64,000 nucleotides of DNA from assembly GCA_027622595.1 (NCBI GenBank), contig JAQBZZ010000004.1:575-64574 (forward strand), given 5' to 3'. Numbering within the stretch: the stretch's first letter is position 1; each line of letters starts with the position of its first letter. Origin of the DNA: Chloroflexota bacterium. Its GTDB lineage: Bacteria; Chloroflexota; Dehalococcoidia; Lucifugimonadales; UBA2985. Of this stretch, positions 1,555 through 55,012 are shown in pieces. Below the pieces are notes generated by a model. That model was not told the DNA's origin and did not search any database. It saw nothing but the letters and a program-made list of their open reading frames with translations. Position numbers and translations under genes: made by a program.

Positions 1555-2364
1555 ATGAGCACCTTTCATGAGAAACTGACCTCAGCTTCCAAGAAAAACA
1601 ACTCCCTCCTGTGCGTCGGCCTCGACCCCGACCCGGCCCTCATGCCCGTGAAAGATGTGTTGGAATTCAATCGGGCCATCATAGACGCCACCGCAGACCT
1701 TGTGTGCTGCTACAAACCCAACCTGGCCTTCTACGAGGCCCTTGGCATCCCTGGGCTTGAGGCCCTTCAACGGACACTCGAACACATCCCCAGCGACATC
1801 CCTGTGCTCGGCGATGCCAAGCGCGGGGACATAGGCTCCACCGCCAAGGCCTATGCCACAGCCATGTTCGAGCAATGGGGTTTCGATGCCGTGACCGCCA
1901 ATCCCTACCTGGGAAGAGACGCCGTAGAGCCTTTCCTGGAGTACCCAGACAAAGGCATCCTGGTACTGTGCCACACCTCCAACCCGGGTGCCGCCGATTT
2001 TCAAGAGCTTTCCCTGGGCCGGGGCAGCGAGCAGCGGCCCCTCTACGAGCAGGTGGCCCTCAAAGCCCGCGAATGGAACAGCCGCGGCAACGTCGGCCTT
2101 GTGATGGGCGCTACCCACCCTGAACAGATGCAAACAGTGCGCCATCTCTGCCCGGACATGGTCATACTGGCCCCCGGGATAGGAGCTCAAGGTGGAGACC
2201 TGGAAAACACCGTTAAATTCGGCGTGAATACCGGTGGCGAAGGCCTCATTATAAACTCGTCCAGAGGCATAATATTCGCCTCACGCAACAAGGACGACTT
2301 CGCCAGTGAGGCCAGACGAGCAGCCCAGGAGCTACGCCAGAACATCAACAGGGCCAGAGAATGA
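1555..2364 (+). CDS. pyrF: orotidine 5'-phosphate decarboxylase (type 2)
   Basis: Motifs LCVGLDPD and [12 protein letters not shown] are present. A GGAGG lies 5 nt upstream of the ATG at 1555. The ORF-track start at 1495 has no ribosome-binding site. Confidence 0.9.
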
Positions 2365-2573
2365 ACGACCAAGCGATCATGGAGTGGAACGTCGGCGACA
2401 TTATCACGTTACGGAAGGTCCACCCATGTGGCGGCTACCAGTGGAAAGTCTACCGGGTTGGGGCCGACATCGGCATCCGTTGCACGGTATGCAGCCGCAG
2501 GCTGATGCTGGAGCGCCGTGCCCTTGAGAAACGAACCGCTAATGTCGCGCAAGGGAGTCAGACGCCCGGCTAA
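2361..2573 (+). CDS. DUF951 family protein
   Basis: [49 protein letters not shown] matches the DUF951 pattern (HPCG...W.v.R.G.DI...C..C). An ATGA overlap with the pyrF stop suggests translational coupling. Confidence 0.75.
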
Positions 2574-2660
2574 ACAGCGCGCTTGTCTACTTGGTAAAGT
2601 GAACTTATAATTGGCCGCAAACCCAAGGCGACCAGTACCGCCAATATCGAAAGGTTTCAA

Positions 2661-3335
2661 TTGCCAAAGTCCTCTACTATAGCCATAGACGGCCCTGTCG
2701 CCGCAGGAAAATCCGCGGTCGGTGCTCTTTTGGCCCTTCGCCTGGGCTATCGCTTCATTGACACAGGGGTGATGTACCGTGCCCTGACCTGGGCAGTACT
2801 CAGAGACAAAGTAGACCCTGATGATGAGGCAGCGGTGACTGCACTGGCCGGTAAGACCCATATTGAAGTGACCAGTAGTGATGGGCTTGAAAGCTCGCAA
2901 ATCAGGGTGGACGGACAGGATGTCACCGGACAGCTCAGGACCAGGGAGGTGGAGCAAGGAGTCTCGAGGATTTCCTGTTTCACCGAAGTGCGCCGGGCCA
3001 TGGTGACCCGCCAGAGGACTCTTGCCAAGCAGGGCATGTTGATAATGGCGGGCAGAGACATCGGCACCGTCGTCCTTCCCAATGCAGACCTCAAGATATT
3101 TCTCACCGCCTCTTCTGAGGAGCGCGCCCGCCGACGCCATCTCGACATGAAGGGGTCGGGACCATCCCCAACATTCGAACAGGTCCTGGAAGAACTCCTT
3201 CACCGCGACAAACTGGACACCGAACGGGCCAACTCGCCCCTGCGACCGGCGGACGGCGCCCACATCCTCAACACGGAGAGTATCGACCTCACCCAAGTGG
3301 TGGAGCGCATCATAGCTCTGGCAGAAGACGACTGA
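2661..3335 (+). CDS. cmk: cytidylate kinase
   Basis: It has an IAIDGPVAAGKS P-loop, the YRFIDTGVMYR motif and typical length. Confidence 0.9.
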   Translation: MPKSSTIAIDGPVAAGKSAVGALLALRLGYRFIDTGVMYRALTWAVLRDKVDPDDEAAVTALAGKTHIEVTSSDGLESSQIRVDGQDVTGQLRTREVEQGVSRISCFTEVRRAMVTRQRTLAKQGMLIMAGRDIGTVVLPNADLKIFLTASSEERARRRHLDMKGSGPSPTFEQVLEELLHRDKLDTERANSPLRPADGAHILNTESIDLTQVVERIIALAEDD

Positions 3336-4024
3336 TGGGCATAATATACGGCACCGCCAATGTGCTCCTGAAGGGCGCGTTGGGCATCTTTGGAGACTGG
3401 AAGGTCGAAGGTAGGGAGTACGTGCCGCCAAAGGGCCCACTGATTATCGTGTCCAACCACCAAAGCAACATGGACCCGCCCATACTGGCCATCAGTGTTC
3501 CCAGACGCATCAACTTCATGGCGAAACGCGGCCTGTTCCACAACCCCGTGGCCTCTCGCTTCTTCAAGGCTTACGGCGCGTTCCCACTCAACCAGAGCGG
3601 GAACGACCTGGCGGCAATCCAGCGGAGTATAAGAATACTCAATCAAGACGGTGCATTGCTCATCTTCCCTGAAGGCACTCGTAACCCCGGCGCCATGCGC
3701 AAAGCCATCCCGGGGATCGCACTGATTGCTCTCAGATCGGGAGCCCCGATTCTGCCGGTGGGAATTACTGGAACAGAGGTAATCGGCCCCCCCTGGCAGG
3801 TGGCTGTACCCAAGGGGACGTTCAGGGTAAGGATAGGGCAAGCTTTCACCGTGCCTCCTATGGAGGGCACTGTAATTCGAGGGCAACTGGAAGCCATCAC
3901 CACCATGATTATGGAGCGGGTTGCATCCCTGCTGCCGGAGAGCTATCGCGGAGAATACGCTCGGGGAAAGAATGGAGTCGTTTCAGAAGCGGCTCGGGGA
4001 GAAAGCGGAAACGGGGGCACGTAG
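3335..4024 (+). CDS. plsC: 1-acyl-sn-glycerol-3-phosphate acyltransferase
   Basis: NHQSNMDP (the HX4D motif) and FPEGTR acyltransferase motifs are present. The start overlaps the cmk stop by 1 nt. Confidence 0.85.
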   Translation: MGIIYGTANVLLKGALGIFGDWKVEGREYVPPKGPLIIVSNHQSNMDPPILAISVPRRINFMAKRGLFHNPVASRFFKAYGAFPLNQSGNDLAAIQRSIRILNQDGALLIFPEGTRNPGAMRKAIPGIALIALRSGAPILPVGITGTEVIGPPWQVAVPKGTFRVRIGQAFTVPPMEGTVIRGQLEAITTMIMERVASLLPESYRGEYARGKNGVVSEAARGESGNGGT

Positions 4025-16417: not shown

Positions 16418-18988
16418 TCACCCAGGGGAAATAGTGGGTTCACCAATCTGCCTCAGGTGGGCCATGAGCGCGCTCTTTATGCGGCGCCATGCCCAAATTA
16501 GACGCAGTTCCTCCATAGCCGTTGGAGCCATGCCTCCATACCGCTGACGCACAAAGCTACTGGATACAAGCTCAACCTCTTCACTGGCCTCTGGAATCAG
16601 CATCGAGAGGCTGTGCGAGAATTCCAGGGCGGTTTGCGATGGAGGCGAGGGAAACCCCAGGAAGGTGGCCAGCCTATGCACTCTTTCGAAGGCCGTTTGC
16701 CCTGTTCCCAATCCACCGTACTGCCGCATCCAAAGAATGCGCATGAGGATGGCTCCAACCACCAAAAAGAGGCCGAATAGGACCCCGCCCATCCCAAGAG
16801 GTGTCCCAAAGTATCGAAGGGGCAGAGCCAGTGGGCCCGACCCTCCCGACAATGGCCCCCCACCAGGATCCATGAGCAGCTCCTCTCCCTCCGGGTCCAA
16901 AAGACCCTCCAGAGCATCCAGTTCCTCTTCCCCGTTTTGATCTAGCAATAGCCCATCACCACTGAATGGGCTTGCAGGGAGGCCGCGTGGGCGGGTAGGA
17001 TAGATTGGTGTAGGCTCGAAGGGCACCCATCCGACGTTGAGGAAGTAGACCTCCGGCCAGGAATGGCTGTCCCGGTCCCTCACCAGGAACCCCTCTTCAT
17101 CAGGGTCGGGTTCTCCAGGGCCAAAGCCCAACACAAGCCGCGTCGGAATCCCCTGGGTCCTGAGCATCATGGCCATGGCCGACGCAAAGTAGTCTCCGTA
17201 GCCTTCCTTGGACTCAAAGAGGAAGTAGTCCACCGTGTCGGCGTCGTGTGGAACGGTCTGAGGAGCAACTGTATACTCAAGGCTTCTCAGATAGGTCTCT
17301 GTAGCTACGGCACTATCATAGATATTGGTCGCTCCAGACACAATGTTGGAGGCCAATACGGATACTCTATCCGGCAGGGAATCCGGGACCTGAAGGTAGC
17401 GCTCAAGTATCCCCAGAGGGTACTGCTCCGGAATGGTACGCAGTGCCTCCTCGCTGACCAGGTTGAACTGGGAGGTAACTCTGTATTGACTGCCGCGCAC
17501 CAACCGCTCAATTGGCTCAATGGAAACGGTAGAGCCTGTCAACTGCGCCCTCACCACCTCCAGGCCCACAATTGTTCCCTGGCTATCGACGGCTTGCCGC
17601 ATATCCGCGTAGTAGGAAGACGAGTCCGGTTCCAGATCAAAGGTGGTCCTGCCGCCCGAAGGCGATAGGTCTTTGACCATCTTGAGCACCAGGATATCTC
17701 CTGGAATCCTCGTCACGAAATTGTTGCCGGGATCGTTCACAAAGGCAGCCAGATTAGAGGCCAGGCTCTGCAAGCCAACGGGTAAATCTCCGTTCTGTTC
17801 CAGGTCGGCCAGGTCTATCTGGTACTTCTTGGAAGCGGGGATGTTCTCCCTGGCATTCGGGTTCAAGAGTACCGGATTTCCAGCCACCAAAAGGTAAGGA
17901 GACGGCACGTACATATCGACCTGGTAAACAACTCCGGATACACCCTCTTCCGATTCATCTATCATCTGTTCAGAGGGTGTAATCACCAGTTGAGACACGG
18001 TATCCCCCACCCTCCACGCCTTGGACGTGTACTGGTCATAGGCTATGGCAGGCCAGTAGAGAGCGTAGCGAGAGTCCGAGAATAGGATGGGGTCGTCAGC
18101 CGTCGGCACAGGCCGAACCAGCGGAAGGATCGAGCCGAAGAAGCGTATGGATGAGGGACTGTAGCCGGGCACGCCGGCGAAGATTCGATAGACCTCGTCC
18201 TGAAAACTGTCCACCACTCTATCCACCGGCTCGAAGGCCCATTCCAGAGGAGCGTCGGGAGTTTTCCAGATGGGAACCATTACGGTAATCCCGAGGATAA
18301 TGGCGCTCAGCCATACGCCATGAAACAGTGACAAACGATGAATCGAGGGTGGATGTGGAGTACCCCTGGCCTGGAGCAGGGAGCGCTGGCTGAGGCTGTT
18401 CATATGCACCAGCATGAGGAGGGCGAAGAAAAGAAAGACGAATAGGTAAACGGAGAACCTGTCCGGCAGGTACGTGAGGTTGATTATGGTGCCCATCCCT
18501 ATTGGCAGAAGAGTCGCCCAGACGTTCCGATGTTTGAAGAGGCCCCAGGAGGTGAAATAGGCCACCATCCAGGTTATCGCTATGACACTGACCGAGAGCG
18601 GTAGGCCATCGGTGGTGGCATCCTCTCCCACTACGGCAGACCACCACTGCGCCAACCTGCCATTCAACTCGCCGAACTTCGAGTACCACTGATCGGCCTC
18701 TATGAGATATATCCCTCCAGCGTAGGCAAGGAAACCCCCTGCCAGGATGGCCCAAAGATGATGCACTCCGCGGTATTCTCCCAAATTGACCAGCAGGATA
18801 GCGGCCAGCGCTGCAAGGAAAGCAAATAGCACAAGAGGCGGAGACTCCACCCACCCGGCGGCCTGCACCGACGCGGCAGCCGTTGTCAACAAGGCCACTT
18901 GAAGCCAGAACGTGATGTCCAGCCCACGCAAAAAGCCCCTTATCCGGTAAATCGGTGACAGGTAGAATGTCCCGGTCTGTAGAGTCAT
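16418..18988 (-). CDS. TgpA-like transglutaminase-domain membrane protein with substituted catalytic residues (DUF4129-like C-terminus)
   Basis: It has N-terminal multi-TM segments. The core FLFESKEGYGDYFASAMAMMLRTQGIPTRLVLGF...DSHSWPEVYF...WVPFEPT aligns to the TgpA-type G.C..FA...GIPAR...H.W.EV...W...DP core, with Gly in the Cys position. I set the start at the ATG at 18988, which overlaps the DUF58 stop (ATGA). Confidence 0.8.
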   Translation of the reverse strand: MTLQTGTFYLSPIYRIRGFLRGLDITFWLQVALLTTAAASVQAAGWVESPPLVLFAFLAALAAILLVNLGEYRGVHHLWAILAGGFLAYAGGIYLIEADQWYSKFGELNGRLAQWWSAVVGEDATTDGLPLSVSVIAITWMVAYFTSWGLFKHRNVWATLLPIGMGTIINLTYLPDRFSVYLFVFLFFALLMLVHMNSLSQRSLLQARGTPHPPSIHRLSLFHGVWLSAIILGITVMVPIWKTPDAPLEWAFEPVDRVVDSFQDEVYRIFAGVPGYSPSSIRFFGSILPLVRPVPTADDPILFSDSRYALYWPAIAYDQYTSKAWRVGDTVSQLVITPSEQMIDESEEGVSGVVYQVDMYVPSPYLLVAGNPVLLNPNARENIPASKKYQIDLADLEQNGDLPVGLQSLASNLAAFVNDPGNNFVTRIPGDILVLKMVKDLSPSGGRTTFDLEPDSSSYYADMRQAVDSQGTIVGLEVVRAQLTGSTVSIEPIERLVRGSQYRVTSQFNLVSEEALRTIPEQYPLGILERYLQVPDSLPDRVSVLASNIVSGATNIYDSAVATETYLRSLEYTVAPQTVPHDADTVDYFLFESKEGYGDYFASAMAMMLRTQGIPTRLVLGFGPGEPDPDEEGFLVRDRDSHSWPEVYFLNVGWVPFEPTPIYPTRPRGLPASPFSGDGLLLDQNGEEELDALEGLLDPEGEELLMDPGGGPLSGGSGPLALPLRYFGTPLGMGGVLFGLFLVVGAILMRILWMRQYGGLGTGQTAFERVHRLATFLGFPSPPSQTALEFSHSLSMLIPEASEEVELVSSSFVRQRYGGMAPTAMEELRLIWAWRRIKSALMAHLRQIGEPTISPG

Positions 18989-20226
18989 GAATGCGTTCCT
19001 GCCTGCTCTCCCACGGGCGGGGTACCGGGAAGACGCCAGGGATGCTGCAAGGCCTGGGCTATATCCTCGTTTTTCCTGAGCAGGTAGGTAGGCACGCCTC
19101 TTCTTTGAAGCTGGCTGAGAAGGAGCCGGGGGTCTCCCGTGGCACCAAAGGATGTGGGGTCTATCAACACCGCCGTTGCCGAAACGCCCTGCCGGATCAC
19201 AGATTCCAAGGCGACACCCCATGCGGGGTCAACGGAAGAGGTTATCACCGCCAGGGAGACGGTAGGAGAGGGAATGTGGGACTGCCAGTAGACGAGGAGT
19301 TCTCTGAGAGGAACAGTGCCCTCGGCACGTGCCTCGGTCAGGGCCACAAACATACGGTCCAGAGAGAGCGCGCCTTCCTGTGGTGAAAGGACGTACTGGC
19401 GGTCTCCGTAAGACATCATCCCCACCGCCCATCCCATCTGTGAGTAGCTCTTGGCAATGGAGGCTGCCGCGGTTACCGCATACTCCTCGGTGTTCTCAAC
19501 CTCGTCCCCTTCCTTAATCTCCGCCTGTAGGTCAAGGAGAATCCAGGCCACATCTTCCATTCCGCCATCGAACTGCTTCAGCATGATGTTGCCCCTGCGG
19601 GCGGTCGCAGGCCAGTGGATATACCTGGTGCTGTCTTCCGACCGGTATTCCCGTAGGGTGGAGGCAGAGGCGCTGGATTCAGGAGTACTCCTCAAGAACG
19701 ACCCCTCTCCGCTGAAGTCCCCCTGGGACAGAGAGAATGGTGGAATGTCCACCATGTACGGCAGCACCACAAGCTGCTCCCCTCCAGGTCCTCGGCATTG
19801 CAGCCGGAATATACCGAATGGGTCTTTGCTGGAAACGGTGGGCGAACCAACCCTGTAGATGCCGCGCTTCATGAGGGGGATTTTCAATACCAGAGATAAA
19901 TCTCCGAAGGGTGGCAGGTTTATCACTGCTCCCGTATTGTGGCCGGGCACCTCAGAAAGATCGTTTATCTCAAGGCTGAACTTGGGCAGCGGGCTTGAGT
20001 TATGAATGGCGACCCGGCTCTCCAGGTACTCCCCCACCCGGAGTTTGCCATACGTCCTGTTGACCGTGACATGGGTTGCCAGCAGGTTCAGATAAGCCCA
20101 CATGAAGCTGCCCGCCGCCACCAGCGCGGTGAGGAAGAATACTCGAAAGTACACGGGCACGCCGGAACCCAGCGCCAGGAGAAGGGTGACGATCAATAGC
20201 AAAAGTATGGTGTATATACGTTTCAT
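18985..20226 (-). CDS. DUF58 domain protein (vWA-like partner of MoxR)
   Basis: Two N-terminal TM helices and REYRSEDSTRYIHWPATARRGNIMLKQF (the DUF58 signature) are present. Confidence 0.8.
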   Translation of the reverse strand: MKRIYTILLLLIVTLLLALGSGVPVYFRVFFLTALVAAGSFMWAYLNLLATHVTVNRTYGKLRVGEYLESRVAIHNSSPLPKFSLEINDLSEVPGHNTGAVINLPPFGDLSLVLKIPLMKRGIYRVGSPTVSSKDPFGIFRLQCRGPGGEQLVVLPYMVDIPPFSLSQGDFSGEGSFLRSTPESSASASTLREYRSEDSTRYIHWPATARRGNIMLKQFDGGMEDVAWILLDLQAEIKEGDEVENTEEYAVTAAASIAKSYSQMGWAVGMMSYGDRQYVLSPQEGALSLDRMFVALTEARAEGTVPLRELLVYWQSHIPSPTVSLAVITSSVDPAWGVALESVIRQGVSATAVLIDPTSFGATGDPRLLLSQLQRRGVPTYLLRKNEDIAQALQHPWRLPGTPPVGEQAGTHS

Positions 20227-21113
20227 GGTCGCTCAACCCGGCCTTGTGCACCGTCATCCACATCTTTCTCGGCCTCGGCGTGCGTACCGCCCTTGAAAAA
20301 GACCTCCCAGCCGGCGACGACGCCCGCGGCGGCTACGATCATACCCGGGATGGTCCAGGCCAGCACCGGCAGCAGCGGATAGCGGTCGAATGGAATCTGC
20401 GCAGTACCCTCAAGGAAGTGGGGGCCGTCGTAAGACCAGGTGGACACCCATTCTATGCCGAGGCCGGTTATCAGCAGCATCACTATTCCCGGAACCACCA
20501 GTCCTTTGCGTGTGAGCACGATGGCAAGGACTATCAAACCGCTGATTCCAATGGGAGTCGCCACATTCAGAAACATACGACGAGGAATAAAGATCAGTAT
20601 GGAGTTGTTGGCAATGTCGCCAATGAGGGCAGTGGTGAAGAACAGGAACGCTATCGCCGATAGAAGCCCTATGGAGAGGAACACGTTGGAGGTGTTGTTG
20701 GGCCTCAAGCTTGGAATGGACGTTTCAAGGAGGAGGAAAAGCAGAAGGGGAATGGCCAGGGTGTATTGCCATAGAGGAGGCGCAAGGGCCTTCACATCCA
20801 GGAGAGTGGGAGTGTCATAATCTATGGGTAGGAACTGCAGAATGGGCAGGAGAATGAGCAAAGCAACACTGACGCCCCAGAAAGCCAGGGCTACCATCCG
20901 GCGTCCCGCAACGGCGTAGGAGCTTGCATAGAGCGTCAGCGCACCAAGGCCAAGGGTCACAAGCATTGCCGGCAACTGTAAAAGAGGCTTGGGTTGACTC
21001 TGTGCCTCGACCAGCAGCACCCCGAATGCTGCGACCAGCGACACACCCACGGCCGCGGCCACCAACCTGGTCAGGCTGTTGGCCTGTAAGTACGAGATAC
21101 GGTTTATCTCCAT
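20223..21113 (-). CDS. polytopic membrane protein, unknown function
   Basis: About 8 hydrophobic segments are present. Its stop overlaps the DUF58 start (ATGA at 20223-20226). Confidence 0.6.
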   Translation of the reverse strand: MEINRISYLQANSLTRLVAAAVGVSLVAAFGVLLVEAQSQPKPLLQLPAMLVTLGLGALTLYASSYAVAGRRMVALAFWGVSVALLILLPILQFLPIDYDTPTLLDVKALAPPLWQYTLAIPLLLFLLLETSIPSLRPNNTSNVFLSIGLLSAIAFLFFTTALIGDIANNSILIFIPRRMFLNVATPIGISGLIVLAIVLTRKGLVVPGIVMLLITGLGIEWVSTWSYDGPHFLEGTAQIPFDRYPLLPVLAWTIPGMIVAAAGVVAGWEVFFKGGTHAEAEKDVDDGAQGRVERP

Positions 21114-21225
21114 CTTCTGTTACCCGTCCGTCCCCCTAAAGATCCGACAGGAGAGACGCCTCCAATACCATTCGGTGATGCAATTGCATCAATAGTAAAT
21201 TGTAACATTTTCGCTGGTTCATCAA

Positions 21226-21270
21226 CCAGTTCCAGTTGTGCCAGTTCCAGTTGTGCCAGTTCCAGTTGTG
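21226..21270. repeat. 3 perfect tandem copies of the 15-mer CCAGTTCCAGTTGTG
   Basis: I read it directly from the sequence. It lies 113-157 bp upstream of the start codon of the 20223-21113 operon. Confidence 0.9.
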
Positions 21271-21361
21271 AGGGTATACGACTCTGCACAGGGGATTATT
21301 AAAAGGGTATCCCAGGTCAGCAGGTGTAAGAAAGTGGAAATTACGGGGTCGCCTTCAAGCC

Positions 21362-21411
21362 GGCATACAGCTTCTTGGATACCATCTTCGAGTCATACTC
21401 CGGTACCTTGC
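21362..21411 (-). pseudogene. displaced remnant of the uvrB 3' end
   Basis: 46 of 50 nt are identical to 22534-22583, the real uvrB 3' end plus stop. It encodes ..VPEYDSKMVSKKL versus the uvrB end ..[13 protein letters not shown], and the stop is mutated (TAA to TAT). Confidence 0.7.
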
Positions 21412-21437
21412 TTCTCGGTTCAAACATGAGCTGATGG

Positions 21438-22430
21438 CTAGGGTATCTCTATTACGACCGTCCAACTGTCTTGACCGCTGATCTCTAGATAGAAACTGCC
21501 CTTTCGACCATAGATCAAGGTTTCCCCAGAAGGCTCGTTACTGATTAGGGTATCAATCCGCGCACCTGTAGCTGGGTTGTACAACGTAAGGTAAAGATTG
21601 CCCGTCGCTTCCCACTTCAATCGCCACGGCGATGCGTCCACTATGAACGGCAAGGTGTTCTGATGGCCAACGCCAGTGAAACTCGCAATTACTCCTGATG
21701 GGGGTGTTGCCGTTGGTAAAGGTGGGTACGTCGCTGTCGCAGTGGGTTCAGTCGTTGGAGTGGGCATGACTGTAGCTGTGGAAGCAGGGGTAATGGTTGC
21801 CTTCGGCGTAGGAGCGACCGTCGGCGTTAAAGGTATGTATGTCGCTGTCGCAGTAGGTACAATCGTTGGAGTCGGCGTGGCTGCAGCTGATGAAGCAGGG
21901 ATAGTGGTTGCCGTCGGCGTAGGAGCGAACGTCGGTATTGAAGCTATGTACCTCACCGTTGCAGTAGGCACTGAGGTGGCTGTCGGCAGAACTGACGGTC
22001 TGAGTCCACCGTCAGATGGTGATTGCTCATCGTCCTTCACAAGGGCTATTCCTAGTAGCAGGATAACAGAAAAAGCCCCAATCATCCCAAATATGAACCC
22101 CTTAGACACATGAGGCACTTTCCACCTGTCTGAGCGGTCGCCTGGGCGTGGAGGACGCGGGGGCGAGCCTGACTGCGATGGAGGTTGGGGTGGATCAGCA
22201 CTGGCGTAACCTCTTCGGGCAAGTTCATCTTGGTCGTATTGCCTGCGGCGGGTAGGGTCGCGTAAGGCTTCGTAGGCAATGTTCACAAGTTTCATCATCT
22301 CAACCGCATTCGGCGATTTGTTCCGGTCAGGATGCCAATAACTAGCCGCGCGATGATATGCTGCCTGCAGCTGTTCCTCGGAGCAGTCAGGAGCAACACC
22401 CAGGATGGTGTAATAGTTCTGTTCAGCCAT
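21438..22430 (-). CDS. J-domain (DnaJ-like) membrane protein with Pro/Thr-rich 37-aa repeats and a C-terminal beta-rich domain
   Basis: The N-terminus NYYTILGVAPDCSEEQLQAAYHRAASYWHPDRN carries the HPD motif. One TM helix (FIFGMIGAFSVILLLGIALV) follows, then P/T/A repeats, then an 85-aa C-terminal domain. Confidence 0.8.
   Translation of the reverse strand: MAEQNYYTILGVAPDCSEEQLQAAYHRAASYWHPDRNKSPNAVEMMKLVNIAYEALRDPTRRRQYDQDELARRGYASADPPQPPSQSGSPPRPPRPGDRSDRWKVPHVSKGFIFGMIGAFSVILLLGIALVKDDEQSPSDGGLRPSVLPTATSVPTATVRYIASIPTFAPTPTATTIPASSAAATPTPTIVPTATATYIPLTPTVAPTPKATITPASTATVMPTPTTEPTATATYPPLPTATPPSGVIASFTGVGHQNTLPFIVDASPWRLKWEATGNLYLTLYNPATGARIDTLISNEPSGETLIYGRKGSFYLEISGQDSWTVVIEIP
21727..21988. 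repeat. about 2.4 tandem copies of a 111-bp (37-aa) unit inside the J-domain gene
   Basis: Units start at 21727, 21838 and 21949. The protein repeat is PTATxxYIxxxPTxAPTPxATxIPASxAxxxPTPTxx. Confidence 0.8.
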
Positions 22431-22536
22431 TAGCTTCCTTGCCCAAGTTATGACGGTGGCATTACCGCATCTGCAAGGGTGAGATTCCCATTTAGTATGG
22501 CTACCGGAGTAGGCGTAGCTCTTGAGTCAGGCTGGC

Positions 22537-24555
22537 TTACAGCTTTTTGGATACCATATTCGAGTCATACTCCGGTTCCTTGCCGGAGGCCATGACCTTG
22601 CGAAGCTCCACCATTTCATCACGCAGCAGAGCAGCCTTCTCGAACTCCAGCGACCTGGACGCCAGTTTCATCTGGGACTCCAGGTCCTTGATCACACGCA
22701 GCAGGTCGTCCTTGGGCATGTCCCGGTGTACCTCATAGGTCGGGCGTCTCTCGGCCACGGCCTTTACCCGTTCCGTGATATCTCTGATGGCCTTGTGAAT
22801 GCCCTGTGGGGTGATGCCGTGTTCCCTGTTGTGTGCTTCCTGGATTTCCCGCCGCCGATAGGTCTCTCCAATCGCCTTTTTCATGGAGTCGGTCATGTTA
22901 TCGGCGTACATGATGACGTGGCCGTCGGAGTGGCGGGCCGCCCGGCCAATGGTCTGGATTAGCGACGACCCGGAGCGCAGGTATCCCTCCTTGTCCGCGT
23001 CCAGAATGGCAACCAGGCTGACCTCCGGCAGGTCGAGGCCCTCCCGAAGAAGGTTGATCCCGACCACCACGTCGTGCACACCCAGACGGAGGTCGCGGAG
23101 TATCTCGCTGCGCTCCAGCGTGTCGATCTCCGAGTGGAGGTAGTGGGTCTTGACGTTCATCTCCTGTAGATAGTCAGCCAGCTCCTCCGCCATTCGCTTG
23201 GTAAGGGTGGTCACAAGGCACCGCTCTCCCCTGTCCACCCGCGTCCGTATCTGGTACAGCAGGTCGTCGATCTGGCCCTTTGTCGGCTTGACCTCGATGG
23301 TGGGGTCAAGCAGGCCGGTTGGTCGTATGACCTGCTCAACCATCTGCTGGCTGTGGCTGTACTCGTAGGCGCTTGGCGTCGCAGAGACGTATACGGCCTG
23401 GTTTATATGCTTCTCAATCTCATCGAAGTTGAGAGGCCGGTTGTCCATTGCAGACGGCAGACGGAAGCCGTAGTCAACAAGGGTCTGCTTCCTGGACATG
23501 TCCCCGTGGTACATCCCATGCATCTGCGGAATGGTCATGTGGCTTTCGTCTATGAACAGGAGGTAGTCGTCTGGGAAGTAGTCCAGCAGACACCAGGGGG
23601 TGCTTCCCTTTGAGCGTCTTCCAAGGGGAGCGGAGTAGTTTTCGACGCCGGAGCAGTAGCCCGCCTCACGCAGCATCTCCAGGTCGTACCTCGTGCGGTT
23701 CTCAAGACGCTGCGCCTCCAGGAGCTTGCCCTGGTCGCGGAACCAACCGACACGTTCCTCCATCTCCGCCTTGATGTCCTCAATGGCCAGGACCAGCTTC
23801 TCTTCAGAAGTGACGAAGTGCTTGGCAGGATATATATCCACCGAGTCTCGCTCACCGAAGACCTCGCCCGTAAGCGGGTCGAGTTCTAGGATACGCTCCA
23901 CCTCGTCGCCCCAGAACTGGACCTGCAACGCCACGTCCTCATACGCGGGCAGTATCTCCAGCGTATCGCCGCGGACGCGGAACTTTCCACGGGAGAGGTC
24001 CATGTCGTTGCGCTCGTACTGCTGGTTCACGAGCCGGCGAATGAGCTTGGAACGACTGTTCTGCTCCCCCTTGCGGAGGGATACAACGAAGCTCTGATAC
24101 TCCTCAGGCGCGCCCAGACCATAGATGCAGGACACGGAGGCTACTATCAGTACGTCACGTCGGGTGAGGAGTGAGCGAGTAGCGGAGTGACGCAGCTTGT
24201 CGATCTCGTCGTTGATGTTGGAGTCCTTCTCTATATATGTGTCCGTCTGGGGAACATATGCTTCCGGCTGGTAATAGTCGTAGTAGGACACAAAGTACTC
24301 AACGGCGTTGTTGGGGAAGAACTCCCTGAACTCCGTGGCAAGCTGGGCCGCCAGGGTCTTGTTGTGGGCGATGACAAGGGTGGGACGCTGCACCTTCTCG
24401 ACGACGTTGGCCATCGTGAAGGTCTTGCCGCTGCCCGTGACGCCAAGCAGGGTCTGATGCCGCAGGCCCTTGTTCACACCCTCCGCGAGCATGTCTATGG
24501 CCTGGGGCTGGTCTCCCGTTGGCCCGTAGTCTGAAACGATCTTGAATTCTGGCAT
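22537..24555 (-). CDS. uvrB: excinuclease ABC subunit B
   Basis: [10 protein letters not shown] Walker A, helicase motifs and a C-terminal UVR domain are present. Confidence 0.97.
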
Positions 24556-24567
24556 GTTACCTTTGGC

Positions 24568-24783
24568 CTATGCTCCTACCGAAACCTTGAATACGACTTC
24601 CTCATCCCTTGGTATGGGCCACTTCGCCTCTATTAGCACCTCCAGATAGAGGTCTATCGCTTCCCTGACATTCCCCAGCGTCTCATCCAAGGTTTCTCCT
24701 TGGGAGTAGCAGCCGGGCAGTGCTGGCACTTCAACCCAGAACCCTCCCTTTTCAGCGCTGTGAACTATGACAGAATATTCCAT
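24568..24783 (-). CDS. hicB: HicB-family antitoxin (short form, no DNA-binding extension)
   Basis: MEYSVIVHSAEKGGFWVEVPALPGCYSQGETLDETLGNVREAIDLYLE is the classic HicB/UPF0150 fold signature. Confidence 0.75.
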   Translation of the reverse strand: MEYSVIVHSAEKGGFWVEVPALPGCYSQGETLDETLGNVREAIDLYLEVLIEAKWPIPRDEEVVFKVSVGA

Positions 24784-24793
24784 CTCAATAACC

Positions 24794-25006
24794 TTACAGG
24801 AGTTGTTCAAACTCCTCTACAGTAATCCCCGCCCTATCCAGGGCATCAAAAAGAATGCCTACCTTAACTGTGCCCCGATGAAACGGCAATACAAGCAGTC
24901 CCCTTTCAGGATGCCTGAGGATATAATGGCTACCCCGCGTCCGCGTTACCACATACCCCAATTTTTCAAAAGCCCGTATCGCGCGCTGTATTCTGACGTC
25001 TTACAC
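24794..25006 (-). pseudogene. hicA: hicA toxin gene with a stop at codon 2 (GTG-TAA)
   Basis: AGGAGA, then 10 nt, then GTG TAA, followed by an open frame DVRIQRAIRAFEKLGYVVTRTRGSHYILRHPERGLLVLPFHRGTVKVGILFDALDRAGITVEEFEQLL*. That frame matches the HicA pattern (.ai.a.ek.G...r..GSH....hp). No usable start codon follows the TAA. Confidence 0.6.
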
Positions 25007-40532: not shown

Positions 40533-40570
40533 CGATTTCCATTCTCCTGGAAAGCAAAAGGGGCGACCCG

Positions 40571-40681
40571 TCACCCGTGCAGAAAACTTTCCAGCGCCTT
40601 GGTAAGCTGCTGGGGTCGGTGAAGCTGAATGTCGTGGGCCGTGTCCGGAAACCACTCAACACGTCCGTCGCGGACGAGTTC
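40571..40681 (-). pseudogene. displaced remnant of the alpha/beta-hydrolase 3' end
   Basis: It encodes ELVRDGRVEWFPDTAHDIQLHRPQQLTKALESFLHG*, against ELVRDGREEWFPDTAHDIQLHRPSELAKVLESFLHG* in the intact gene at 42685. By hand count, 84 of 91 nt are identical in the core. Confidence 0.8.
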
Positions 40682-40728
40682 CCGCACCGCTCATCCTGAG
40701 CCTGTCGAAGGACATAAGGGAAAAACAG

Positions 40729-42660
40729 ATGCCTACGCGTTTCCTGATCTTAGTTTTATCTATCGGCCTCATGACGGCTGTCACAGTGGCTTGTGAACAG
40801 CCAGCAGAGGATGGACATGACAAATATAACTCCTTGCTTCTTGGCGACGCGAAGAAGCTATCCATAGACGACCTGGTCGATTTGGAGCTGGATGTACCCG
40901 GGGATGTACCCCACAACCAGCAAGCTGGTATTCTGCTGCGAGTCCGCCACGTTGACCCTGACGCGTACCTATCCCTGAGCAACGCCCGCCCTTCCCTTCG
41001 CGTCCTCCAAGAAGACGGCACGGAGATTTACCAGTCGGGGGACAACTACACGGAGACGGCCCGCTACAATACCATCGCACCAGGCGAAACGGCGGAATAC
41101 CGGATGTCCTGGCCGCACCTCTTCCGGGAGCAATGCGTGTCCTTAGACACGGGGTTGGGGTGTCCCGCCCCACCAGGCCGTTACCAGATACAGGCCTCGC
41201 TGTTGGTCGGCTTTGTACAGGTACTTCAGGCCGGTGAGACGCTGGGAGTGGCTGAGCAGAGCGAGGTGAAAGCCGATCCCACATGGCTCACTGTGACCGG
41301 GGAGGCTGGGGATCCGAATGTGTCGCCCTTTTGGGATCCCGTGAATCTGGAGGATCCGATCTTGACACATCCCGCCAGACGCCTCTCCGGCGGCACACAG
41401 GCTCCGGAGCAGGTAAGTCTGGGAGAAACGGCAATATTCAAGATAATCGTGGGAAACGGATTCGACGAGCCGTTGGAGGTGCCGCTACGCCAGCCGATGT
41501 ACGACTTTACAGTGTCCACACTGGATAGCACAGAAGTCTGGCGCTGGTCAGATACTCAAGAGACGGACGATACTCCGGTGGCGTTCCGACTGGAGCCGGG
41601 CCAGTGGGAGGAATTCGAGGTGGAGTGGGACCTGCGTGGCCGGAACGGGGATCCCGTCCCGGCTGGCTTGTATGAGGTCGAAGGCTGGCTTCGGTTGGCC
41701 CCAGAGGGAGAGATATCACTAACTCGGCAGTTCATGTTTGTTGGTTCGAAGCCCTCCTTGAGGGACGTGATGGAAGTTGAGTTGCTGGCGCCCAAGTCGA
41801 CCGCTGCCAGAGAAGACGTGCGTATGCGGGTCATCATCAAGAACGTTAGCGGTAGTATCTTACGCTTGTGGTATGGTGCTGACTACGTGGTCTTCCAGGT
41901 GCGGGACGGCAGTGATAACACCATTGGGCCAGAAGCGGGGGCCTATCTGCTCTGGCTTGGTGGGATGCAGTTGTTTCCAGGACAGGTGCGTGTGGTAGAG
42001 CAAATCAGGTCGCTGGAGCGCGACCTGGAGGGTTTCCCCCTGGAGCCAGGGGAGTACCAGATCAAGGGCATCGTCAAGTTCTCTCTTCAAGACCCACCAC
42101 ACGGTAGCCGCAGCTATGAGCGACTGGAAACCTCTGTCCACACCCTGACCATCACAGAGGCTCCGCTGCCCGAGTATGCCAAGGCAATCGAGCTGGAGTT
42201 GACCGCACCCTCGGAAGTGCGGGCTGGTGAGTCGGTGCCAATGGACATGCGCATCACCAACACCAGTGATAAACCAGTCATCCTGTGGTGGAGTAGCGAC
42301 AAAGTAGGCCCCAGACCCAACGACATTGAAATCGTCGTCTTCCGCGACGGCGAACCTGTCTGGCGTGCGACCTCTGCCCACGGCGTACAGTACCAGGGAA
42401 CAATAACCCTGGGGCCAGGAGAGTCGCAAACCATGAGCGGTATGTCATTCCGTGCTACAAACGGTAGATACAAAAGCTCAGGAGACCCGTGGGAGTGGGA
42501 CCAGCGGGCAGACTGCGGCGAGCCGGTCGAGCCCGGTACTTACACAGTCCGCGGCGTAGTCAACGTCTCACCGCCAGAGACGATGGAGCAGGAACCACCC
42601 TTCACAGCAGAGCGCACGACCATCGCCACCGAACCCCGGGAATTAGTCATAATCCCGTAA
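40729..42660 (+). CDS. lipoprotein with four BsuPI-like (intracellular proteinase inhibitor fold) repeats
   Basis: A signal peptide with lipobox (TVAC) is present. Four units of about 110-150 aa each end in PG.Y.v.g (PPGRYQIQA, PAGLYEVEG, PGEYQIKG, PGTYTVRG). Unit 2 reads QPMYDFTVSTLDSTEVWRWSD...LEPGQ, like the BsuPI signature. Confidence 0.55.
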   Translation: MPTRFLILVLSIGLMTAVTVACEQPAEDGHDKYNSLLLGDAKKLSIDDLVDLELDVPGDVPHNQQAGILLRVRHVDPDAYLSLSNARPSLRVLQEDGTEIYQSGDNYTETARYNTIAPGETAEYRMSWPHLFREQCVSLDTGLGCPAPPGRYQIQASLLVGFVQVLQAGETLGVAEQSEVKADPTWLTVTGEAGDPNVSPFWDPVNLEDPILTHPARRLSGGTQAPEQVSLGETAIFKIIVGNGFDEPLEVPLRQPMYDFTVSTLDSTEVWRWSDTQETDDTPVAFRLEPGQWEEFEVEWDLRGRNGDPVPAGLYEVEGWLRLAPEGEISLTRQFMFVGSKPSLRDVMEVELLAPKSTAAREDVRMRVIIKNVSGSILRLWYGADYVVFQVRDGSDNTIGPEAGAYLLWLGGMQLFPGQVRVVEQIRSLERDLEGFPLEPGEYQIKGIVKFSLQDPPHGSRSYERLETSVHTLTITEAPLPEYAKAIELELTAPSEVRAGESVPMDMRITNTSDKPVILWWSSDKVGPRPNDIEIVVFRDGEPVWRATSAHGVQYQGTITLGPGESQTMSGMSFRATNGRYKSSGDPWEWDQRADCGEPVEPGTYTVRGVVNVSPPETMEQEPPFTAERTTIATEPRELVIIP

Positions 42661-42684
42661 CCTACCCAGTGCCAGAGCTCCCCG

Positions 42685-43533
42685 TCACCCGTGCAGAAAA
42701 CTTTCCAGCACCTTGGCAAGCTCACTGGGTCGGTGAAGCTGGATGTCGTGGGCCGTGTCCGGAAACCACTCCTCGCGACCATCCCTGACCAGTTCCTGCG
42801 CCGCACGCACCGCCTCTCGTTTCCTGTCGTTTGCCTCCACCCTGTCCAACGAGGGACTCAGAGCGGCCGCGAAGAGCACGGGCATTTCAAGCTTTGGGTA
42901 AAGCTCCCTGGCGTTGAGGTCGCCCATAGCCTGTAGGATACGGACGTTGTTCTCCCGCGAAAGGCGCTCGCTTATGGAACCGTCGGGGTTGACGGTGACG
43001 CTGGCCATGAGTATCTCCTCTATCTCAGGGGTCATTACGTCACGAAATCCACCACCAGACGCCTGTAGGTAAGTCTGCCTGTTCTGGTAAACCTCGGGCG
43101 GTGCCATCATCTGCGTATAGTCGGGCGGCGATCCATCCAGCGTCCTGCGGCGGCCTCCAAACCCTCCATCTACCAGCGCCAGGTGAGATATTGTTCCAGG
43201 ACTGGAAGCTGCCAGGCTCAGCGCTACCCCCGCGCCCCAGGAGTGGCCGGCCAGCAGCGCTCCCTCTATGCCTATCTCCCGACATAGCTTCTCCACGTCG
43301 CCGGCGACGGTCTGGTAGTCATACCCCCAGTCGGGCTTGTCCGATTGGCCGTGGCCGCGTAAATCCACGGATATCACCCTGTGCTCCTGGGCAAGGAGAC
43401 GAGCGGTAAGAGACCAGTACTCGGCGCACACAGTCAGACCGTGAAGCAGCAACACAGGAGAGCCGTCTCCCTCCCACTCCAGGTACCGAAGGGATATTTC
43501 TGAATTTGCAGTAACCTTAGCTATGGGATTCAT
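42685..43533 (-). CDS. alpha/beta hydrolase
   Basis: The HGLT oxyanion region and the GHSWG nucleophile elbow are present. I trimmed the start to the ATG at 43533. Confidence 0.8.
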   Translation of the reverse strand: MNPIAKVTANSEISLRYLEWEGDGSPVLLLHGLTVCAEYWSLTARLLAQEHRVISVDLRGHGQSDKPDWGYDYQTVAGDVEKLCREIGIEGALLAGHSWGAGVALSLAASSPGTISHLALVDGGFGGRRRTLDGSPPDYTQMMAPPEVYQNRQTYLQASGGGFRDVMTPEIEEILMASVTVNPDGSISERLSRENNVRILQAMGDLNARELYPKLEMPVLFAAALSPSLDRVEANDRKREAVRAAQELVRDGREEWFPDTAHDIQLHRPSELAKVLESFLHG

Positions 43534-43689
43534 GTATTTGGAAAGAGCCGTGCCATTCCAGCTACGGGACCATCGTAGTCTTACTGGCCATTGTAACTCC
43601 ACAGGGAGATGAGTCAAGGCGCGGTAGACCCTGTGGGCCTTGACGTGAGGCTCATAGCAACGGGATAATCAATTCCCCTGGCAACAAAT

Positions 43690-54406: not shown

Positions 54407-54416
54407 TGTTTGCCCC

Positions 54417-54452
54417 CTACTCCATATCTTCCCACGTCTGCCCCGCCTTCAC
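54417..54452 (-). pseudogene. displaced remnant of the polA 3' end
   Basis: It encodes VKAGQTWEDME*, against the polA C-terminus LKTGYTWGDME*. A 17-nt perfect core (CCCCCTACTCCATATCT) is shared with 55009-55025. Confidence 0.55.
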
Positions 54453-54681
54453 CTTAAGCCAACCCAGATGTCGGCAGTGATCTCACGGCCCATGATTTCC
54501 GCTACCTCTCGCAGCAACACTCGCAACTGCGGCACTGAATATTCGGCATTGGATGGGACGGCCAAGCGGTACTGCTGATAGACCATGAACTGGTGGCGGG
54601 TGCCGGAAAGGGGCCGTCAAAACCCAGCTTTCGGAGGCGCCGCACAAACTCGCGGCGTCTACAGGGTCTCCACCGGCTCAC
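54449..54681 (-). pseudogene. hicA: HicA/YcfA-like toxin gene with a frameshift
   Basis: A GTG start gives MSRWRPCRRREFVRRLRKLGFDGPF. The frame then shifts near 54603-54612. The other frame continues GTRHQFMVYQQYRLAVPSNAEYSVPQLRVLLREVAEIMGREITADIWVGLR*. The joined sequence matches the HicA pattern (LGF....G..H). Confidence 0.6.
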
Positions 54682-54925: not shown

Positions 54926-55012
54926 GGCAATAGTGCACCTCGTTACCACCTCAAATCATACCACTAAACCCGTTATGCCACATACTAAACCACCGTCTTT
55001 TTACCTGACCCC

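Follow-up and report, generated by a model that had tools for sequence, protein, structure and literature searches.

Integrase-mediated islands and prophages enter the 3' ends of genes and supply a replacement end, as do the islands in tRNA and tmRNA genes and, in icd, e14 and phage 21. In the effector loci of Rhs, contact-dependent inhibition (CDI) and type VI secretion systems (T6SS), C-termini are displaced and orphan arrays arise, and what is displaced there is a working toxin tip together with its immunity gene. Here we describe a gene for a J-domain protein that stands between an intact and a displaced copy of the 3' end of uvrB in a 64,000-nt stretch of DNA, the window of this study, from a Chloroflexota bacterium of the Dehalococcoidia (GenBank assembly GCA_027622595.1, contig JAQBZZ010000004.1, positions 575 to 64,574 of the forward strand). 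Its order of intact target end, element and displaced partial end copy is that of integrase-mediated islands. Unlike these, the uvrB insert is without an integrase and consists of a single 1.1-kb gene, and the layout is found at unrelated targets in one genome. The likeness to Rhs, CDI and T6SS effector loci is that new 3' ends arrive there by recombination in the conserved part of a gene and push the old ends downstream; what is displaced at uvrB, however, is a short housekeeping-gene tail that has no function, and the cargo is a gene of its own.

The published class to which the locus compares best carries the name insertion with long target duplication (Nobusato et al., 2000, Gene 259:99, as cited in PMC2853133). 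Furuta, Abe and Kobayashi (2010, NAR 38:2428; PMC2853133) reported inserts of a few kb that contain no mobility genes and are flanked by unique direct repeats of more than 30 bp, among them cases in H. influenzae with 46-bp repeats overlapping the 3' end of a gene. Only inserts with restriction-modification (R-M) genes qualified for their screen, and breakage of DNA by the R-M enzymes was proposed as the driver (PMC2853133). Similar to these cases, the insert behind uvrB is absent from related genomes in which both flanks align (G002, G020 and 13 others), is bordered by a unique repeat of more than 30 bp that is single at the empty site (57 nt, 51 of 57 identical), and is shorter than 20 kb (1115 nt) with neither integrase nor transposase. 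In contrast, its cargo is a J-domain membrane protein without restriction or modification genes, and the repeats of this kind in the genome are 81-90% identical, whereas those of Furuta et al. are nearly identical. Given that the cargoes described below are a J-domain protein, a lipoprotein, hicBA, and an ArsR and AHSA1 pair, the process cannot depend on restriction enzymes, and these cargoes speak against R-M breakage as a general need. The uvrB layout is genuine, but this way of gaining genes, probably without a recombinase, has been described before.

A laboratory counterpart exists in E. coli, in which a plasmid with a segment of the lacZ end mostly gave single crossovers of truncated circles, with duplications of 109-950 bp of the lacZ end (PMC3240628). 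Such Campbell-type integration and homology-facilitated illegitimate recombination (HFIR) are alike to the present case in that one-sided homology suffices for the entry of foreign DNA. They differ in that the laboratory events used engineered donors and perfect homology, while the homology at the loci described here is 42-124 nt long and diverged. HFIR is reportedly associated with the names of de Vries and Wackernagel (in 2002) and of Prudhomme and colleagues (also in 2002).

The duplicated uvrB end and the gene between its copies

The window belongs to a metagenome-assembled genome (MAG), here called G000, of 1.67 Mb in 86 contigs (91% complete, 4.9% estimated contamination), and the uvrB locus lies on its contig C3. 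A preliminary description of the window had counted 46 identical nucleotides out of 50 between 21362-21411 and 22534-22583, at a period of 1172 bp. The repeat search arrives at the same count and the same spacing of 1172, inside a longer direct repeat (21355-21411 and 22527-22583) in which 51 of 57 nt are identical. The genes of the locus (uvrB, the cassette gene, mem296 and the DUF58 gene) all lie on the minus strand, and its parts are, in gene order:

22537-24555, minus strand: uvrB, intact, 672 aa, with the Pfam domains UvrB_inter, UvrB, Helicase_C and UVR
22527-22583, minus strand: proximal repeat copy, the working 3' end of uvrB (44 coding nt, the TAA stop codon and the next 10 nt)
21412-22526, minus strand: inserted cassette, 1115 nt, GC content 0.54, not in the empty sites of relatives
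22431-22526, minus strand: non-coding leader of the cassette gene, with the Shine-Dalgarno sequence AAGGAAG 5 nt before the ATG
21438-22430, minus strand: cargo gene, 330 aa, with J domain, Pro-rich linker, one predicted transmembrane helix, Thr/Pro-rich linker and C-terminal beta-sandwich
21355-21411, minus strand: distal repeat copy, the orphan uvrB 3' end, which reads ..KVPEYDSKMVSKKLY.. and has lost its stop (TAA to TAT)
21114-21354, minus strand: native spacer between uvrB and mem296, whose start (GGCGACCCCGTAATTTCC) matches the sequence after uvrB in G002 and G001
20223-21113, minus strand: mem296, encoding a 296-aa polytopic membrane protein; in the family, this gene natively follows uvrB
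18985-20226, minus strand: DUF58 protein, the next native neighbour after mem296

The six mismatches between the two copies are scattered, there are no insertions or deletions (indels), and identity is unbroken over at most 18 nt (ACCGGAGTATGACTCGAA), a run bounded by mismatches; the unique sequence that flanks the repeat is different at each copy. Since the 1.67-Mb assembly holds only these two copies (blastn finds the second with E=4e-16), the repeat is neither a chance similarity nor a dispersed element. The absence of a stop codon from the distal copy and the 330-aa J-domain gene between the copies (DnaJ domain, E=1e-19) had both been seen in the preliminary description, and both hold. A small ORF that runs through the orphan (MFEPRSKVPEYDSKMVSKKLYAGLKATP) is not conserved and meets a stop at codon 5 in G004, the second genome with the cassette.

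The order of intact end, cassette and orphaned end had been taken as the footprint of an insertion, a view with which both the empty sites in relatives and the native flank of the orphan agree. We took uvrB loci from 30 relatives; the UvrB protein of G000 shares 86-91% aa identity with relatives. At 15 of these loci the site is empty, with mem296 and the DUF58 gene immediately behind uvrB (G002, G020, G017, G019, G023, G024, G015, G018, G022, G008, G011, G005, G016, G003 and G012). At a 16th locus, that of G021, the mem296 gene also follows uvrB, and the sequence of the locus stops before DUF58. The gap between uvrB and mem296 is about 215 nt in G002, which is of the same genus as G000, versus 1424 nt in G000, and the difference is close to the 1172-nt period. 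The relatives carry a single uvrB end. The downstream flank of the orphan in G000 is homologous to the native sequence downstream of uvrB in G002, G001 and G010: the sequence after the orphan (GGCGACCCCGTAATTTCC..) resembles that after the uvrB stop in G002 and G001 (GGCGTCCCTGGTATTTTTG..), and G010 is similar over the 10 nt that follow the stop. It follows that the orphan represents the original uvrB end in its native neighbourhood, and comparison of the loci lends good support to the 1115 nt between the copies being an insert. The duplication of the uvrB end around the J-domain gene is confirmed as first described.

The cassette is shared with G004 from AGCTACGCC.. (22520 downward) to ..GAACCGAGAA (21412). 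Its GC content (0.54 versus 0.56 in the genome) gives no compositional signal, and it contains one ORF, in which DnaJ is the only domain matched in Pfam. Inverted repeats at the cassette ends and a transposase were not found at the uvrB locus, dispersed copies of the cassette ends were not found elsewhere in the G000 genome, and scans of the region for tRNA genes, Rfam families, promoters and terminators gave no match. Contig C3 has no match to tyrosine (PF00589) or serine (PF00239) recombinases, of which there are about ten and three matches, respectively, elsewhere in G000. A transposon or insertion sequence (IS) was rejected, the element being without terminal inverted repeats and transposase and the duplication measuring 57 nt here and 42-124 nt elsewhere. 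An integron gene cassette was likewise rejected: the contig is without a tyrosine recombinase, and the 3' flank of the gene is a copy of the uvrB end, not an imperfect palindrome (no scan with an attC model was made).

The spacer between uvrB and mem296 is a frequent insertion site in the family. Relatives with longer spacers (G010, G014, G021, G023 and G007) showed no orphan uvrB end. The G010 spacer (contig C45, about 2020-3680 of locus L106) holds a 392-aa ORF between inverted repeats that resemble repetitive extragenic palindromic (REP) sequences or miniature inverted-repeat transposable elements (MITEs) (CCCCGCTCATGGTGAGCTTGTC .. GTCGAACCAAATGAGCGGGG), and the G014 spacer (2200-3700 of locus L108) a 496-aa ORF resembling an IS transposase; neither insert comes with a duplicated uvrB end. 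In G000, the native spacer contains a perfect tandem repeat of three 15-nt units at 21226-21270 (CCAGTTCCAGTTGTG), upstream of mem296 and unique in the genome. Directly upstream of uvrB stands a solitary gene for an 80-aa HicB-like antitoxin (24568-24810), at a place where G004 has a different small gene.

Gene-end duplications at other loci

Comparison of the whole G000 assembly with itself yielded four further unique duplications of gene 3' ends around inserted genes:

40567-40690 and 42681-42804: 124-nt repeat, 86% identical, comprising the last ~40 codons and the stop of an alpha/beta hydrolase gene (42685-43617, minus strand)
54413-54454 and 55009-55050, minus strand: 42-nt repeat, 81% identical, at the end of polA (..TGYTWGDME and stop)
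Contig C5, 30472-30561 and 31688-31777: 90-nt repeat, 88% identical, the end of a 449-aa amidohydrolase-like gene, around an ArsR and AHSA1 pair
Contig C67, 18585-18664 and 19407-19486: 80-nt repeat, 87.5% identical, the end of a 512-aa HerA-like ATPase gene, around a 112-aa ORF

The hydrolase repeats bracket a gene for a 643-aa lipoprotein-like protein (40729-42660), which lies on the plus strand, opposite to the hydrolase. This orphan, in front of which lies a REP-like element, still ends in its stop, and the empty site is seen in G002, where dapA and the hydrolase gene are adjacent. The polA repeat consists of the last 11 codons, the stop and GGGG, and brackets a hicB/hicA module in which hicA appears split into ORFs of 59 and 45 aa. 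For the C5 locus, the empty site is present in G001 as two adjacent convergent genes, and at C67 the flank of the orphan corresponds to the sequence after the intact gene in G002. At C5 and C67, later deletion has removed the final 15 to ~150 nt of the orphans.

Taken with uvrB, the cassette ends at five loci adjoin five unrelated targets, with repeats of 42-124 nt, and no motif common to the ends of the five cassettes rose above the shuffled background. The distal boundary of the repeat lies 10 nt past the stop at uvrB, 4-6 nt past it at the hydrolase gene and 4 nt past it at polA. Some other local repeats returned by the genome scan were dispersed REP/MITE-like elements or tandem paralogues and were left aside. 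At the start of contig C65 (1-124 and 1420-1543), a gene-end duplication around a PIN-domain gene is cut by the contig boundary.

Spread of the cassette and origin of the second gene end

The cargo gene is present in two of 29 genomes of the family, G000 and G004, the other 27 being without it, and its C-terminal domain in 5 of 401 genomes of the order. G004 (JACVQK01, Dehalococcoidia bacterium B4_bin.23) is a MAG of another genus. A scan of genome contigs for the cassette found it in G004 only, a scan of metagenome contigs found generic J-domain genes only, and a word-indexed protein search for the cargo returned the window's own protein only.

In G004, the cassette gene also stands directly behind uvrB. 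Homology between the two genomes starts at AGCTACGCCTACTCCGGTAGC, with 16 nt separating it from the uvrB stop in G000 and 2 nt in G004. The right junction is common to both and reads ..TTTGAACCG(A/T)GAA joined to GCAAGG.. (also written ..CATGTTTGAACCG(A/T)GAA joined to GCAAGG..). Past this junction, G004 continues in the uvrB frame with SKEPEHDSRPAARNTRDSE and then TAA, a uvrB-type tail that differs in kind from its working uvrB end (..GQGPEQEPRTVSKEL). Beyond the orphan tail lies a YajQ-like gene, and the mem296-DUF58 pair of G004 is located on another contig, behind a citramalate-synthase-like gene. The uvrB gene of G004 itself (L052, 2861-4795) encodes 644 aa, with about 28 middle codons fewer than in all other family members and the frame open.

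The cassette is of younger age than its two host genomes, which are less diverged in it than in their background. Identity at fourfold sites is 0.38-0.59 in ten orthologues (pooled 613/1225 = 0.50; uvrB 0.50) and 0.64 (81/126) in the cargo gene, whose J domain reaches 0.69 and whose C-terminal domain reaches 0.78; uncorrected synonymous divergence (pS) is 0.26-0.37 for the cargo versus 0.49 for uvrB. The non-coding flanks of the cassette are identical at 72 of 90 positions (80%, in the leader) and at 40 of 48 (83%), while the native spacer upstream of mem296 cannot be aligned between G000 and G004 and is 71% identical over 79 nt to that of G002, of the same genus. Silent and non-coding divergence of about half the genome background argues that the cassette moved laterally: judged from its two known hosts, it was most probably passed between the lineages after their split, along with the junction to a uvrB end.

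We consider it somewhat probable that the J-domain gene came in laterally as an accessory cassette, which was added behind uvrB by homology-anchored, recombinase-free integration and brought its own copy of the gene end. A fragment from a close relative would have carried a uvrB end together with the cassette, and the last ~57 nt of uvrB would have been the sole homology used. If circularised, such a fragment could integrate by a single crossover (Campbell-type insertion-duplication), which would duplicate the homologous segment on either side of the insert; if linear, it could recombine homologously within uvrB at one end and be attached at the other by a short or illegitimate join. Either route would leave a working uvrB end beside the cassette and a displaced, decaying end beside the native downstream genes. 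The unit could then spread by double crossover to any genome with uvrB, and the orphan as second homology arm would explain the identical junction beside different downstream DNA in G000 and G004. Recombination between the copies would remove the cassette precisely, with an empty-site join of the uvrB end directly to AGGCGACCCCGTAATTTCC. In this scheme, we infer the donor, a circular or linear intermediate and a dependence on RecA. The repeat ends just past the stops of uvrB, the hydrolase gene and polA are consistent with the boundaries expected of Campbell-type integration or HFIR. Boundaries 4-10 nt past the stops lie where homology between genomes with different neighbours would end, which favours a homology-limited process.

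According to the preliminary description, the insert had brought a replacement end with it. The insertion itself stands, and an imported end is favoured, although an in-situ duplication fits too. Over 109 codons at four loci, working and orphan ends differ by 20.3 synonymous and 20.7 non-synonymous changes (pN/pS 0.28, p=1.3e-4 against neutrality), with the strongest synonymous bias at C67 (pN/pS 0.08). A mixed model, in which the working copy is constrained and the orphan neutral, leaves a silent excess with an estimated p~0.02. With relatives as outgroups, 16 derived changes fall on working copies and 21 on orphans, where decay of the orphan only predicts about 10 to 27. These tests of divergence, which draw on a few dozen sites, mildly favour the working and orphan ends as two alleles that may have diverged while both were coding, with a donor closely related to G000.

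Several observations weigh against this scheme. Its weakest point is that the usable identity is short for a RecA-dependent crossover, namely 18 nt in G000 and no more than ~23 nt in G004. The hosts are not alike at the left junction, with 16 nt from stop to cassette in G000 and 2 nt in G004. The two uvrB copies are closest to each other (89%) and equidistant from every available relative (72-87%), so that a donor cannot be pointed to and an in-situ duplication would suit the data equally; similarly, sliding identity to G010, G002, G001, G004, G020 and G017 showed no mosaic step near the uvrB 3' end. The synonymous bias rests on 41 differences, mainly at one locus (C67). To our knowledge, neither natural competence nor another route of DNA uptake has been described for these organisms.

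An identity this short is like a recombinase core or a microhomology, which keeps a trans-acting site-specific recombinase in play. The insert would then resemble a cis-mobilizable element (CIME) or a decayed island, with the uvrB end as attB, a mimic of attP in the cassette and the repeats as attL and attR. Such an enzyme would fit the inner boundary of the orphan (GCAAGG) and the right cassette end, which are identical in two genera, the discrete cassette ends beside different uvrB tails, and the usable identity of 18-23 nt, short like an att core; roughly ten tyrosine and three serine recombinase matches lie elsewhere in the genome. We nevertheless regard it as unlikely, as neither the cassette nor its contig encodes a recombinase, the mismatches are scattered through the repeat without an identical core longer than 18 nt, and the five loci combine five unrelated targets, repeats of 42-124 nt and cassette ends without a common motif.

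Alternatively, a long target duplication could have formed in situ, by capture of the cassette at a long-staggered break or by template switching akin to microhomology-mediated break-induced replication (MMBIR), with no imported end and with subsequent drift of both copies. The published class of insertion with long target duplication is framed in this way (PMC2853133). The greater similarity of the uvrB copies to each other (89%) than to any relative (72-87%), the absence of indels and the derived changes on both copies are as this explanation would have it, but a distal boundary at or just past the gene end (uvrB, hydrolase, polA) is not expected of random staggered breaks, and the differences between working and orphan ends are biased to synonymous ones. 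In G004, moreover, orphan and working tails differ in kind, and the identical junction in two genera would require either that one break occurred twice or that the structure was transferred as a whole. We hold an origin in situ to be doubtful.

It is very improbable that the arrangement of uvrB and J-domain gene is ancestral and was lost from the empty relatives by repeat-mediated deletion, without lateral transfer. In the uvrB tree, G000, G001/G002, G004 and G010 form one supported clade (97 in the Shimodaira-Hasegawa approximate likelihood ratio test, SH-aLRT), so that vertical descent with one gain and one or two losses is parsimonious, and the flanking repeats permit precise loss. Vertical descent leaves unexplained, however, why the cassette is about half as diverged between G000 and G004 at silent and non-coding sites as ten background genes; the cargo is missing from the other 27 genomes of the family, and the orphan would still record an insertion at some point. 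An assembly artefact had been raised in the preliminary description; one such as a collapsed or chimeric join of strain variants would be conceivable in a MAG of 86 contigs with 4.9% estimated contamination, but is excluded for practical purposes because an independent MAG shows the same cassette and orphan junction, and the copies in G000 differ at six sites, have different unique flanks and, on the orphan side, run into native synteny.

The cargo protein and the possible meaning of displaced gene ends

The cargo has the J domain of the DnaJ/Hsp40 proteins (PF00226, residues 5-66), with the HPD motif in ..YWHPDRNK... Its C-terminal domain of ~85 aa is predicted to be an eight-stranded beta-sandwich (single-sequence AlphaFold model; AF2 predicted local distance difference test, pLDDT, 77.7). 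In fold it best matches PPC/collagen-binding domains and the jelly roll at the C-terminus of Tk-SP subtilisin (template modelling, TM, scores of 0.58-0.66). About 250 relatives of this domain are detectable, and among the ten closest matches scanned it is fused to trypsin-like proteases, PD40 propellers and, in two (P0005 and P0018), a J domain. The cargo is most likely a membrane-anchored J-domain co-chaperone that would recruit cytoplasmic Hsp70, with the modelled PPC-like beta-sandwich as an extracytoplasmic binding module. A functional link between the cargo and uvrB was not seen. The linker of the cargo gene contains one further feature:

21717-21938, minus strand: tandem duplication of a 111-nt unit (two copies, 84% identical) in the Thr/Pro linker

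At the same place in the linker, the G004 gene has a (GCCACN)n run encoding Ala-Thr, and the linker is therefore evolving by repeat expansion. The cargo has a pN/pS of 0.3-0.6 between the two hosts, as befits a functional gene under loose constraint.

Insertion with long target duplication is, on this evidence, not tied to R-M genes, which is unlike the first proposal. The cargoes moved in this way in a small-genome environmental bacterium are a chaperone-type gene, a lipoprotein, toxin-antitoxin genes and a regulator pair. The comparison of two genera, together with the pattern of silent changes, offers some rare evidence on how such inserts originate and spread, and orphan gene ends are useful markers in annotation for recent gene gain beside housekeeping genes. 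We tentatively raise the possibility that displaced gene ends are working parts of a general, recombinase-free route of gene shuttling in streamlined Dehalococcoidia. If this were true, a cassette between copies of the last 40-120 nt of a conserved gene would carry both of its homology arms. It could enter any genome with that housekeeping gene, regardless of the DNA downstream, and depart through recombination of the two copies, and the five loci in a 1.67-Mb genome, together with the cross-genus uvrB cassette, would be snapshots of a major mode of accessory-gene flux.

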